Source of the DNA: an uncultured Gammaproteobacteria bacterium
Lineage (GTDB): Bacteria > Pseudomonadota > Gammaproteobacteria > CAISUE01
DNA length: 64,000 nucleotides
NCBI GenBank assembly: GCA_903888615.1
Contig: CAISUE010000046.1
Location: 1,016-65,015, forward strand
Direction of reading: 5' to 3'
The position numbers are program-made. Shown here piece after piece: positions 45,001 through 48,000 of this stretch (positions are counted from its first letter, which is position 1; every line of letters starts with the position of its first letter).

Positions 45001-48000
45001 TTCAATTTGTTTTTTTTTGTGATTTAACATCAGAATGAGTAATCAAAAATTGCAAAATATCTTTTAAAGTCAATGGCGCGTAATTGGCAATAATAATTGT
45101 CATTTAATAAAATCCTAGTAATGAGAGAGTTTTCTGCTGGGTATTGTACCAAGATAATACTTAAGGGAAGCTTAAGATGAAAAATATTGCCTTTGTTCAT
45201 TGATAGAGGATCATTTTTATAGGCCAAAGGCCTAGCGTAATTTAGCTCAGGGTTAAGGGAAAGCGCACCCTGAGTAGTAAAAAAACTTACCAAGCCCTAT
45301 CGGTGTGTTAAGAATGCTCGCTAGGGTTGTCGAAACTCGTTTCGCACTGATCGCGCGTTTTTTTACAGCCTAATTTCTTAAAGGTTGCGCTATCGCTTAG
45401 CCCCAGGCTGAGGTTTTAAATGCCTTTGGCTTTATGGGTTTTTTTTCTTCGCCTAAATCCTTTCTAGAGCTTCTAGTTCAAAATCTGCTTGGGCTTCGTT
45501 AGACTTAAATCCCTTAATAGACAGGGATAAATCTTAGGTTGTTGTTGCCAAAAAAAAGTGTTGTGTGGATTTGACATCGATCGTGTCTAGCAATATCAAT
45601 TCTTGCTCATTAATCGTCAACGCACAGTGAACCGCATCAATAGTTGATCGATTCGTGCCAGCTAAGACAGAGTGATCAAAGCCTCAGCCGCGCCAATCTA
45701 ATACCGGCACTCATTTATAAGGGTATTTTTTTCTACAAGCTCACTTGAATCCGATGCACCCTGGATGCTTAATTTATTTCAGGCGTTGTTTTGCTGCCCT
45801 TATTGCTTCAAGCGCCACGTTGGCTTTAAATTTACCCGTGAAATTCTTGCGTTTTGTTTCGCTCATAAGCCACCCCTTTTATCGTTAGGTTTATACCTTA
45901 ATTAGGCATTAAAAATGGGCTGATTTTGCGGGTCCACGAGATTTTTTTTGCGCAGCTTTTTGTGTGAAATCATGATTTGATTTAGTTCGCAATACGCAGT
46001 GGGTTGAATAAAGGTTAAGCCATAACACTATTATTGAATAATAAATTCATTGCAATTTATAAGTAAATATAATAATCTAAATAATTCTTTGTTGTTAGCG
46101 CATACGTTCATTTTCATTTGTAACAAGGATGCGCTGTATGCGTCAATAATCGCTTAAATTTTTATAAAGCTATCATAATCGAGTTAACCTCATGAAGATA
46201 CTGCCTTTTTTTTAGCCCCGCTCGGTGTCGCTGCTGCGCCCATCATAACTTTTAGACAATTAGAATGGTTGTTGGTACCCAATGGCGTCATTGGCTCTGT
46301 TAATTTTAAAGAAGTCTTAAGTTATTACCTTGCCTTGAAGTATCAAGAAACGCACTCATCGCGCGGCAATAGCAGCTATGTGTTTCTACCCCACCGTGTC
46401 AGCTTTTCAGCCTTCACCGCTAATGCGGGAGATTGTAACGTACAGCTTGGCACTTCTTATAATTGTCAGTGGCTATCTTCTTCTATCAATGGTCAATGGA
46501 CCGCGTATTCTAATGGCAGCTCGCCTTCAGGGGCATCCTCTATAGATGTCAATCTTTGGATTACGGGTGAGCGGGCTCAATACTGGCTAAATGTCAAGCT
46601 ACCCTTTAATGGTGGCAATAGGATGGCAGGAGAAATAACGATCACGCACCGCGCTACTAATTATGCTCCATTAGGGGGTACGTTGAATCCTGACGATATT
46701 TTGATATCCCCAAAGCAAATCCACGTTAAAGCCATGATTGCCAATGCTTCACCAACGGCTGCACCTAGTCCTTCTAGTGCTATGCCGACAGCGAATCCAA
46801 GCCTTAAGCCTATCTCTGCGCTATCCACTGCGCCACCGAGTGACTATTTAACGCGGTTACCCAGTGTTATGCTAACAACGCATCCAAGCCTTAAACCTAT
46901 CTCTGTGCCGTCCGCTGCGCCAAGTAAAAATCCTACCAGTACTGTTTTATACGAAAATCCTAGTGATCCCCCAGGGCACTTTTGGGCAACCAATAGCACC
47001 GAACGTACGATGGCTTTTATAGGTATTGCCTGCGGTACCATGGTAGTTGCGTATATGGCATTAAGATTGACGGGTCATACTCTTTGGAAAAAAAACACCC
47101 CAATCACGCGAAGAGAATTATTATCTGAAGATGGTGACCTTGAAAGCGCTACGCTTGACAACCTTAATGAAGCGCGAAGTGATACCTCGCTGACAGAGCT
47201 CAGTGTTGAAAATAGCCTTAGAGGTTTTAGCGAAGATGATAATAATATCCCTTTCTTTCGCGGTGAATTTCTGCAAGATTATAACCTTGGAAGCGTTGCT
47301 CTCAACAACTCTAATGAGACACGAAGTGATGCTTCGCGGACAGAGCTCAGTTCTGAAGGCAGTCTTGGCGGTGTCAGTGAAGAGAGCGATAATTCAATTT
47401 TTTCTGCAGATGAAGATTTGCGAGCTATTGTGTTATCTATACCGCTTACGGATGAAAATAGGCAGTTAACCCTTTAAAAGGGTCGATTCAAGGCGTTATA
47501 GTGGTGAAAAAGCATTTGCTAACCCCCATGGTTGTTTAGCACCTTGAATGATGGTGTCCGCAAGCGTAAATCAATAGTTGCTACGCCGTAATTCTAGGAT
47601 GGTTGCTGCTTAATAAATAGTCGTCAAAATAGGCGAGTTGTAGCTTTAACGCTAACATGTAATCGTCGTCTTGTGTCCACTTAAGTGAATGTTCTGAATG
47701 TTCTGTTGCGCTTATGCTGTTGATTTGCCTCTGGCAAGGACTGGGATCATTTTCTAAAATAGTTTCCAATGCAGCGTCAATTTTTGCAGATGCTGTGTTG
47801 TTGTTGGTTGCTGCTGATAATGCTGTTTGGAAAGCTTGTTGCAGCACTTTAATTTTTTCTTGTTCAGTGGATTTAGGGGCCACAGTAATGAGCGCCTCTT
47901 TGCCATTGTGTGCTTTTGAAGCAGTGTTGATTAAAAAATCAATGGGATTTACCGTCGGCGCTTTAACGGGCAATAAAGTAACTGCTGGTGCAGGTGATTC

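Follow-up and report, generated by a model that had tools for sequence, protein, structure and literature searches.

The 1,161-bp spacer at 45031-46191 of the window (the whole 64,000-nucleotide stretch of contig CAISUE010000046.1 that we analyzed) very probably holds a dead, partly deleted relic of an IS3-family insertion sequence (IS), oriented on the minus strand, as judged by homology to intact elements. Divergent genes lie on either side, encoding a 338-amino-acid (aa) protein on the left and a 402/428-aa protein on the right, and the GC content of the spacer is 0.376, relative to 0.429 for the window. From 45030, where the minus-strand 338-aa gene starts, to an ATG at 46192, the longest open reading frame (ORF) in our ORF list is 87 aa, the gene calls for an identical public contig place a single 33-aa ORF across the spacer, and a six-frame Pfam scan of 45031-46268 gave no match, in keeping with the initial annotation that ~1 kb here lacks a credible ORF. 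Rfam searches of the window at gathering thresholds and of 44900-46500 at E ≤ 5 returned only noise, with no family in the spacer, where no unusual structure was detected either; the sole ARAGORN prediction was a tRNA-Val at 25388. Since the 1.16-kb gap is explained by a dead IS3-family element together with REP-like repeats, no hidden gene or RNA need be sought in it, and the present role of the spacer would be limited to carrying the promoters of the two divergent genes.

The spacer fragment derives from an IS3 element

The initial annotation had likened a 30-codon minus-strand fragment in the spacer to the N terminus of IS3-family OrfA, and this likeness was borne out when the ORF was compared by tblastn with 72,556 plasmids (7.3 Gb), 66 records of which matched. 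The best match, in Methylomonas sp. AM2-LC, was 84.6% identical over 26 aa (E = 4e-6) and shares the identical start MSETKRKNFTG with the relic OrfA, while the features annotated under the remaining plasmid matches are mostly "IS3 family transposase." Within the window, the same OrfA match has an E value of 8e-10. The relatives used for comparison are bona fide IS3 elements, since the probes pass IS3 profiles: the OrfA probe scored 27.4 bits against PF01527 (cutoff, 24.1) and also matched NF033516, and the OrfB probe scored 281.7 bits against NF033516 (cutoff, 160) and also matched rve and HTH_21.

This IS3 subgroup corresponds to the NCBI "ISPpu29 family" and "ISMch1 family," and its nearest copy lies unannotated on the Methylomonas sp. 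AM2-LC plasmid CP157006.1. A complete element of the subgroup is ~1.3 kb long, bears long inverted repeats at its termini that start with (A)GTGGACCC, and encodes an OrfA with a helix-turn-helix and an OrfB with HTH_21 and a DDE (rve) catalytic core; our full-length reference was a 1,322-bp element on plasmid p1 of Acidithiobacillus caldus MTH-04. The hallmarks of the IS3 family are a -1 programmed frameshift between OrfA and OrfB, TG...CA inverted repeats at both ends, and a 3- to 4-bp target-site duplication.

The relic exceeds the 30-codon ORF first noted. Its colinear pieces span ~456 bp (45482-45937, all on the minus strand) and preserve the left inverted-repeat tip, the 5' untranslated region (UTR), OrfA residues 1 to 47, and two pieces of the OrfB N terminus. 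The putative left terminal inverted repeat (IRL; 45886-45937) reads GTGGACCCGCAAAATCAGCC...AATTAAGG on the minus strand, and an alignment with six related IS copies revealed a conserved (T)AGTGGACCCCG..CAGAC..TTTAAGC motif that recurs inverted at their right ends. The octamer GTGGACCC is unique in the window, and the distance from it to the OrfA ATG downstream is 71 nt (55 nt in the A. caldus reference). A profile of the IRL and UTR built from the relatives alone gave an E value of 7.4 window-wide, and the support for the IRL is weak, being positional rather than statistical. The IS 5' UTR, which includes the ribosome-binding site AAAAGGGGTGG (45867-45903), abuts the OrfA ATG, and blastn aligned 102 nt with the Methylomonas plasmid IS (71% identity), 37 nt of which precede the ATG.

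The 30-codon ORF (45774-45866), whose codons 1 to 26 represent the OrfA N terminus MSETKRKNFTGKFKANVALEAIRAAK, is merely the best-preserved piece of this relic. OrfA residues 23 to 47 were recovered by tblastn in a shifted frame (45727-45801; 48% identity, E = 0.034 in the region) in a piece that is colinear with the first, overlaps it, and contains two in-frame stops (KTTPEIN*ASRVHRIQVSL*KK versus KTVNEIGQEFGVHPTQVGLWKK), so OrfA residues 1 to 47 are interrupted by one frameshift and two stops. The first OrfB piece, LAGTNRSTIDAVHCALTINEQELILLDTID (45576-45665; tblastn E = 0.023, whole window), corresponds to residues 21 to 50 of the A. caldus OrfB fragment. The second (45482-45574) carries the conserved motif IYPxLLRDL, normally located ahead of the DDE domain (SNPH...QPKIYPCLLRDLSLTKPKQI); it was detected by tblastn with ISMch1 OrfB as the query (E = 0.014 window-wide, 2e-4 for the region) and is also matched by A. 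caldus OrfB. None of 300 dinucleotide shuffles reached the scores observed for the OrfB pieces. These OrfB remains are exclusively precatalytic (A. caldus fragment residues 21 to 50 and 104 to 123).

When mapped on the 1,322-bp A. caldus element, the relic retains offsets 0 to 210, 407 to 497, and 656 to 716, and it lacks internal stretches of ~150 and ~125 nt as well as the last ~600 nt, which hold the catalytic core and the right inverted repeat (IRR). The window for the -1 frameshift between OrfA and OrfB has been deleted (reference offsets ~210 to 407; 62 nt left versus 211 nt in the reference). No rve/DDE remnant was found by tblastn or by the six-frame Pfam scan of the spacer, and alignments of the relatives' IRR and the window's own IRL to 44000-45700 did not score above shuffles; the best IRR candidate (45360-45386) proved to be part of a REP-like repeat. 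No target-site duplication was found for the relic, whose right end is lost. The relic resembles its subgroup in its OrfA N terminus, 5' UTR, GTGGACCC tip, IRL-OrfA-OrfB order, and IYPxLLR motif ahead of the DDE domain, but unlike a functional IS3 element it is reduced to about a third of its length, contains frameshifts and stops, and has no DDE/rve core, frameshift window, or IRR. Given the loss of the DDE core and the right end, it is dead, neither transposing nor encoding a transposase.

Could the likeness to OrfA be a chance similarity in an AT-rich spacer? The fragment is indeed unmatched in profile libraries, as neither Pfam nor NCBIfam gave a transposase match for the 30-aa fragment, a hand-reconstructed 51-aa peptide, or any of the six frames of 45031-46268. 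Its short length and advanced decay explain why these libraries miss it: the relic does not match PF01527 itself, although its residues 1 to 47 are homologous to OrfAs that do, and it is broken after residue 26, whereas the PF01527 match of an intact homologous OrfA spans residues 5 to 65. Against chance stand the E value of the plasmid match in 7.3 Gb, with 22 of 26 residues identical, the extension of DNA homology into the 5' UTR, and the presence of three more colinear pieces plus a unique inverted-repeat-tip octamer, so that the probability of a fortuitous match is negligible. It is also very unlikely that the 30-codon ORF or the IS end was domesticated, whether to encode a small peptide that binds DNA or to serve the neighboring genes as a promoter or regulatory element derived from the IS. 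The ATG, ribosome-binding site, and 30 codons have been kept while everything downstream is broken, and the spacer contains 9 promoter-like hexamers compared with 4.5 expected. However, 30 residues stop short of a complete helix-turn-helix, the spacer has neither an Rfam family nor unusual structure, and no other genome carries the junction, so conservation is not demonstrable. In addition, the IS points away from the 402-aa gene, and the REP-like pair and a separate conserved promoter box stand between it and the 338-aa gene.

REP-like repeats lie on one side of the relic

The left end of the spacer contains two members of a dispersed REP-like family (D11/I2). The family has four copies in the window (near 25049-25101, 41653-41717, 45221-45270, and 45367-45434), all of them between ORFs. 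The copy at 45221-45270 (plus strand) is a well-folded two-hairpin repeat (-23.4 kcal/mol, z = -3.6), and the copy at 45367-45434 (minus strand) is inverted and degenerate, ends ~45 nt short of the final recognizable IS piece, and folds no better than shuffles (z = -0.5). The latter has 86% identity to the ~41653-41716 copy and, read against the ~25049-25100 copy, 83% complementarity. In a four-copy alignment, the copies at 25046-25116 (z = -5.0) and 45218-45285 (z = -3.6) form hairpins with compensatory stem changes (CCCGGGG/CCCCGGG versus CTCAGGG/CCCTGAG), while the remaining two are degenerate. The repeats reported in the initial annotation are therefore real, but they do not flank the relic, since both local copies lie to its left.

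REP and BIME repeats typically number more than 100 copies per genome and are associated with a RAYT transposase. Like those of Enterobacteria and Pseudomonas, the repeats described here are short extragenic palindromes, two of them arranged as an inverted pair, with the four known copies coming from 64 kb; they differ from known REPs in their longer unit (~50 to 65 nt, two hairpins), unrelated sequence, and lack of an Rfam family. The 14-nt core was absent from the relatives' loci, and a scan of JGI metagenomes gave two chance matches. The proximity of the relic to one copy recalls the IS3 members IS1397, ISKpn1, and ISPsy8, which target REPs (PMC1525189). Unlike the situation with those elements, no REP half was found to the right of the relic, which leaves its insertion into a REP conjectural.

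The right neighbor is frameshifted rather than truncated

The gene to the right of the spacer is predicted to encode a lineage-restricted secreted or membrane protein. It comprises 402 codons when read from the first in-frame TTG (46269-47477, plus strand) and 428 codons when read from the ATG at 46192 with a frameshift corrected. The initial annotation had described it as lacking an ATG and as apparently 5' truncated. The ORF does lack an in-frame ATG, its frame being open for 27 codons upstream of the TTG at 46269, but the evidence argues against truncation. Frame translations show that the ATG at 46192 is followed by seven codons ending in TAG (46192-46215, plus strand) that include a T8 tract (46206-46213); the ATG and a predicted signal peptide are intact but, across this tract, sit 1 nt out of the downstream frame, and the 428-aa protein is restored by one extra T or a -1 slip at T8. 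An exhaustive search recovered a single genuine distant homolog (P0242; E = 3.8e-10). Its gene sits on a bacterial contig of a more distant relative, at an unrelated locus, and the protein aligns from residue 6 of the 428-aa reconstruction, right up to the T8 run. A word-indexed search of 5.8 billion proteins matched the 402-aa protein only to itself. These comparisons indicate that the gene starts at 46192 and is frameshifted in T8, not 5' truncated by an IS event; the corrected gene model for this secreted-protein gene is a useful by-product for the clade.

The T8 tract is identical in a second public assembly. Rather than being a plain inactivating mutation, it might conceivably act as a slippage switch (transcriptional, or -1 ribosomal on U UUU UUU with the adjacent UAG) or as a phase-variable homopolymer, which we consider unlikely; no frameshift-stimulating RNA structure was found downstream of it (z = +0.8 to +1.2). 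Were it to do so, T8 would set the amount of full-length signal-peptide protein made, and this Legionella-like bacterium would thereby possess a surface or secreted protein that is lineage specific and can be tuned.

A conserved, probable promoter box precedes the left neighbor

In the nearest relative, a related 337-aa gene adjoins sixA at a position equivalent to that of the 338-aa gene, with protein homology restricted to residues 223 to 320 of the 338-aa protein. Motif enrichment and comparison with this relative point to a probable promoter of the 338-aa gene at 45143-45176 (minus strand), consisting of CTTAAG-N5-CTTAAG, 11 nt, and TACAAT. The CTTAAG promoter motif occurs three times in the window, two of the occurrences being one palindromic site read on both strands, versus 0.21 expected, and the relative's homologous gene is preceded by the same architecture, CTTAAG-N5-CTTAAG-N10-TATAAT. 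The tandem CTTAAG box may resemble the PmrA consensus. As a conserved element upstream of a candidate effector gene, this box is a further useful by-product for the clade.

The relic lies at a gene-order breakpoint

We drew synteny from protein searches and contig look-ups, for which one close relative exists (GCA_947378515.1; QueF and MutL 84% and 83% identical, respectively). QueF is 55 to 61% identical to Legionella proteins, and the taxonomy is approximate. A contig scan with MutL patterns found no close relative, since the pattern VDMHAAHE is universal and ~50%-identical Pseudomonadales matches swamped the scan.

The relic-bearing scar lies midway in a ~3.7-kb segment (~44.36 to 48.05 kb) that is not syntenic with the nearest relative and in which the sixA-queF-rdgB block meets a block containing a CE-protease-like gene and mutL. 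In the relative, these two blocks are on different contigs: the sixA contig ends 85 bp upstream of the 337-aa gene, and the mutL block runs on into T2SSF, 525-aa, and PIN/PhdYeFM (toxin-antitoxin) genes, none of which is present in the window. No remnants of the relative's T2SSF, 525-aa, and 62-aa genes were detected in 45000-47600. The nearest relative does not show the same gene order with an intact gene spanning the region, an arrangement that would have spoken against the initial annotation. On the core side of the scar, the 338-aa gene has its counterpart at the same position in the relative, which makes the boundary proposed in that annotation too simple.

We propose that an IS3 element inserted into the promoter-proximal spacer beside the REP-like pair and was then eroded by deletions. 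Given the location of the relic midway in the nonsyntenic segment, IS-mediated recombination or an adjacent deletion would be the likeliest cause of the junction between the sixA block and the CE-protease-mutL block. The evidence tying the IS to the rearrangement is circumstantial, and we put the chances of such a link at about even: the relative's contig stops just where the comparison matters, a second IS copy is not available, and the comparison involves one close relative.

The relic could instead have been carried in with a horizontally acquired segment that also brought the 402/428-aa gene, for example, as one end of a composite transposon or island that has since decayed. We regard this origin as possible but doubtful, and it is compatible with the proposal above. 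The composition of the 402-aa gene (GC, 0.452; GC at third codon positions [GC3], 0.39) differs from that of its neighbors (0.395/0.31 and 0.400/0.33), the sole real homolog of its product is encoded elsewhere in a more distant relative, and the closest IS relatives are found on plasmids of Methylococcales, Acidithiobacillus, and Pseudomonas rather than in Legionella-like genomes. Nevertheless, no second IS end or relic lies beyond the 402-aa gene, where the spacer is only 103 bp (47478-47580), and no direct repeats bound such a segment. A chimeric join at repeated IS or REP sequences during metagenome assembly would also create a junction, and the metagenomic source, the local repeats, and the break in the relative's contig at the equivalent position are all in line with such an artifact. 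It is nonetheless highly improbable, because the whole spacer is identical in contigs of different public assemblies and samples (ERZ18626171 scaffold_898 and ERZ27313091 k141_15123), further contigs of up to 111.8 kb carry the flanking mutL and queF genes, and the relic, being degenerate and having no second copy in the window, is not the kind of high-identity repeat that an assembler would collapse. The scar itself is an ordinary IS remnant that reflects ordinary genome wear and tear; it matters little beyond annotation. Its position flags a break in gene order within an uncultured Legionella-like freshwater lineage.

The insertion next to mutL is a separate event

The initial annotation had placed the scar at the edge of a single run of orphan or eukaryote-like genes interrupted only by mutL and had read it as the trace of insertions and deletions that shaped one effector-rich island. 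Orphan-like, variable genes do surround mutL, and the IS3 remnant attests to past insertion, but a single run and a single island bounded by the scar are too simple a picture. The 490-aa gene adjoining mutL is kept with mutL in two of three relatives. The CE-protease-like gene and mutL are an ancestral pair. The CE-protease-like protein shows homology only up to residue 336, and nothing informative came from searching PDB sequences with it. The block at 51014-59934 is an insertion of 8.9 kb with precise borders, at which 11 bp of the mutL stop region are duplicated; it is separate from the IS relic and has no visible link to it. An NCBIfam search of the five genes of the 51- to 60-kb island gave nothing informative.

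As far as sequence can tell, the region resembles the effector regions and plasticity zones of Legionella-type genomes in having lineage-specific genes with eukaryote-like signatures (LRR and CE-clan protease-like) between conserved housekeeping genes and in domain swapping at protein C termini. The signatures seen are limited to these LRR and CE-clan protease ones, which are weak, and relatives have Ank- and RasGEF-like genes nearby. A difference is that the island proper is a separate insertion. The borders and 11-bp duplication of this lineage-specific insertion at the mutL stop codon are likewise useful by-products of the analysis.

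A gene-free spacer holds a decayed IS3-family insertion sequence

The start of the 338-aa gene (44014-45030, minus strand) and the ATG at 46192 are separated by 1,161 bp in which no ORF is credible. The initial annotation had described about 1 kb here as gene poor, and this description held: the longest ORF is at most 87 aa, a Pfam search of all six frames of the spacer gave no match, and Rfam and ARAGORN detected nothing in it. The GC content of the spacer is 0.376 versus 0.429 for the whole window. Positions 38014 to 51030 are 100% identical to scaffold_898 of ENA ERZ18626171 (BUCK21-1), and contig k141_15123 of a second assembly, ERZ27313091, carries the same sequence in the compared parts. 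In this uncultured gammaproteobacterium, the best named matches of QueF are Legionella proteins (55-61% identity); above 56% identity, MutL has only unnamed relatives.

A 30-codon ORF in the spacer (45774-45866, minus strand), previously read as an IS3-family OrfA remnant, matched 66 plasmid records in a tblastn search of 7.3 Gb, and almost all of the annotated matches are labeled "IS3 family transposase." The best match, on Methylomonas sp. AM2-LC plasmid CP157006.1 (22/26 identities, E = 4e-6), begins with the identical MSETKRKNFTG, and the 100-aa OrfA of that plasmid matches both PF01527 (27.4 bits; cut-off, 24.1) and NF033516. When we used this OrfA, together with OrfB of ISMch1 and OrfB of an Acidithiobacillus caldus plasmid element, as tblastn probes, four colinear pieces were recovered on the minus strand of the spacer. 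OrfA residues 1 to 26 lie at 45866-45789 (E = 8e-10 within the window) and are overlapped by residues 23 to 47 (45801-45727) in a shifted frame with two stops, one of which occupies the position of the conserved Trp of WKK. OrfB residues 21 to 50 (45665-45576; E = 0.023 window-wide) and the OrfB motif IYPxLLRDL (45574-45482; E = 0.014 window-wide) follow; their scores of 27.7 and 25.4 bits exceeded those of all 300 dinucleotide-shuffled versions of 45294-45726 (mean, 15.9 bits; maximum, 23.1 bits). The OrfA remnant and its IS3 reading are confirmed, and the relic, which includes OrfB pieces and a putative left end, is larger than had been claimed.

Homology at the DNA level continues past the OrfA ATG for 37 nt upstream. 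In an alignment, six related IS copies share the conserved end motif (T)AGTGGACCCCG...CAGAC...TTTAAGC and carry it in mirror image at the right end. Its counterpart in the window is GTGGACCCGCAAAATCAGCC...AATTAAGG; the 64 kb contain GTGGACCC only once, at a distance of 71 nt upstream from the ATG of OrfA. Since a profile of the relatives' left terminal inverted repeat (IRL) and UTR alone gave E = 7.4 window-wide, the IRL assignment rests on position rather than statistics. Relative to the A. caldus reference element, which is complete at 1,322 bp, offsets 0-210, 407-497, and 656-716 survive in the relic; it has two internal deletions (~150 and ~125 nt) and lacks the final ~600 nt, comprising the DDE core and right inverted repeat. 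Neither a right inverted repeat nor an rve remnant was found near the relic. The element is dead; the relic is new and unnamed, and its IS3 family is already known. The scar marks a gene-order breakpoint and is, biologically, an insertion sequence in ordinary decay, of low general interest.

REP-like repeats lie to one side of the relic

A two-hairpin repeat of 50 to 65 nt resembling repetitive extragenic palindromes (REPs) has four copies in the window, all intergenic: upstream of tRNA-Val (25049-25101, plus strand; perfect 10-bp stem, z = -5.0), where the APH-like and rdgB genes converge (41653-41717, minus strand), and twice left of the relic (45221-45270, plus strand; 45367-45434, minus strand). 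Two copies, with compensatory changes in their stems, fold far better than shuffled sequences (z = -5.0 and z = -3.6); the other two are degenerate. The local pair is inverted, ~96 nt apart, with ~45 nt between the end of its nearer copy and the last IS piece. Since nothing REP-like was found right of the relic, the two local repeats exist as annotated but sit on one side of the scar instead of flanking it. Neither the relatives' loci nor JGI metagenomes yielded the repeat core. The IS3 members IS1397, ISKpn1, and ISPsy8 insert specifically into REPs (PMC1525189), so the adjacency is unsurprising, although the relic only adjoins the REP-like pair.

A homopolymer frameshift accounts for the missing start codon of the 402-aa gene

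The 402-codon ORF to the right of the spacer has its first TTG at 46269, and its frame is open for 27 more codons upstream. The ATG at 46192 opens a frame reading MKILPFF followed by TAG; a one-nucleotide shift over a run of eight T (T8, 46206-46213) sets it apart from the 402-codon frame. One added T or a -1 slip would yield the product MKILPFFLAPLGVAAAPIITFRQLEW...; no other 19-residue stretch of the protein is as hydrophobic as its residues 3 to 21. A word-indexed protein search with the 402-aa protein returned only itself; an exhaustive search returned one true distant homolog, P0242 (E = 3.8e-10), with the N terminus MRFTFSMFAAALGLTSASVTRELNW. In the BLASTP alignment, residue 6 of the reconstruction pairs with residue 7 of P0242, and the alignment thus extends up to the T8 run. 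The P0242 gene lies at an unrelated locus on a bacterial contig; a more distant relative comes from the same sample set.

Given that T8 is unchanged in the second assembly and that no stimulatory RNA structure was found downstream of it, the 402-aa gene is most likely either a recent frameshift pseudogene or a slippage-dependent gene. The IS event did not remove its 5' end, because the IRL is 255 bp away. The initial annotation was right that the frame has no in-frame ATG, but the T8 frameshift replaces the proposed 5' truncation.

P0242 itself (contig L102, 6001-7563) is a 520-aa protein with a signal peptide and two copies of the same ~190-aa domain, separated by Pro/Thr/Lys-rich linkers; this domain family has no Pfam model. 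The gene for P0242 has pentose-phosphate genes on one side and topA on the other, in a contig from the GROS21-1 samples.

The relic lies in a segment without synteny to the nearest relative

In the nearest relative, GCA_947378515.1 (QueF, 84% identical; MutL, 83%), one contig carries a 337-aa gene followed by sixA-queF-rdgB-APH-GT28; the contig end lies 85 bp upstream of the first of these, the 337-aa gene. The 337-aa and 338-aa proteins have in common only the repeated C-terminal domain (residues 223 to 320, 36% identity). A further contig has PhdYeFM/PIN, a 525-aa gene, T2SSF, a 62-aa ORF, a CE-protease-like gene, and mutL-minD-minE-epmA-uvrB; by tblastx it matched the window only at 48112-51020 and 60005-64000. 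In a relative with 64% QueF identity, a TonB-dependent receptor adjoins sixA. These contig comparisons place the relic mid-way in a ~3.7-kb segment (~44.36-48.05 kb) that is non-syntenic with the nearest relative, where the same gene order with an intact gene across the region was not found. The segment connects two blocks that are non-adjacent in that relative. Their junction fits, but does not prove, IS-mediated recombination or deletion; no remnants of the relative's neighboring genes are left in the spacer.

An 8.9-kb insertion separates mutL from minD

Five lineage-specific genes between mutL and minD (331, 859, 632, 551, and 191 aa; the 859-aa product has LRR_4, E = 5e-7) are absent from all three relatives, in which minD directly follows mutL. 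The last 11 nt of mutL, GCGGCCGATAA (51003-51013), are repeated perfectly at 59924-59934 with exact borders, and in the relative a single copy stands before the stretch that comes after the window's second copy. The island at 51014-59934 is an 8,921-bp insertion placed exactly at the stop codon of mutL, and the 11-bp repeat is a target or att duplication. No integrase or transposase was recognizable in it, and its second half is compositionally distinct (GC3, 0.26-0.29 versus ~0.38-0.43 in core genes). This event is separate from the IS scar.

The CE-protease-like gene (47581-49053, minus strand; 4215-5558 and 8512-9879 in L096 and L097, the mutL loci of the nearest and a second relative) adjoins mutL in two of the three relatives. 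The variable genes around mutL had been read as one accessory island bounded by the scar; the variability stands, but the supposed island is a conserved CE-protease-like gene-mutL pair between two independent variable segments. The CE-protease-like proteins of the window and nearest relative align over residues 1 to 336 (56% identity), whereas their last ~150 residues are unrelated, which suggests a swapped C-terminal module. In the relatives, different genes lie on the far side of the pair, so this side of mutL looks like a place of repeated variation within the clade: a PhdYeFM/PIN toxin-antitoxin pair with T2SSF (L096, 666-4234), an ankyrin-repeat protein (L097, 5287-7314), and a 1,564-aa RasGEF-like protein (665-5359 in L099, a third mutL locus). 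The CE-protease-like protein has a weak RickCE-like (CE-clan cysteine protease/deubiquitinase) signature and a DGWSCGY motif.

Other sites in the window

Upstream of the 338-aa gene, CTTAAG-N5-CTTAAG is followed 10 to 11 nt on by a -10-like hexamer (45143-45176, minus strand), and the same arrangement precedes the nearest relative's positional homolog, the 337-aa gene (locus L089, 12-44). This box may resemble the PmrA box, also in tandem, of effector genes in Legionella and Coxiella. CTTAA-N6-CTTAA has three matches in the window versus 0.21 expected, two of them being this palindromic site read on both strands; the only other site, 62114-62129 (CTTAAGCAAACCTTAA), is at the end of the epmA-like gene, within the start of a 172-aa ORF. 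Finally, a 280-nt direct duplication (32344-32623 and 32945-33224; 79% identity, 601 nt apart) spans a pair of neighboring short ORFs on the minus strand (148 and 138 aa), which are probably tandem paralogs.
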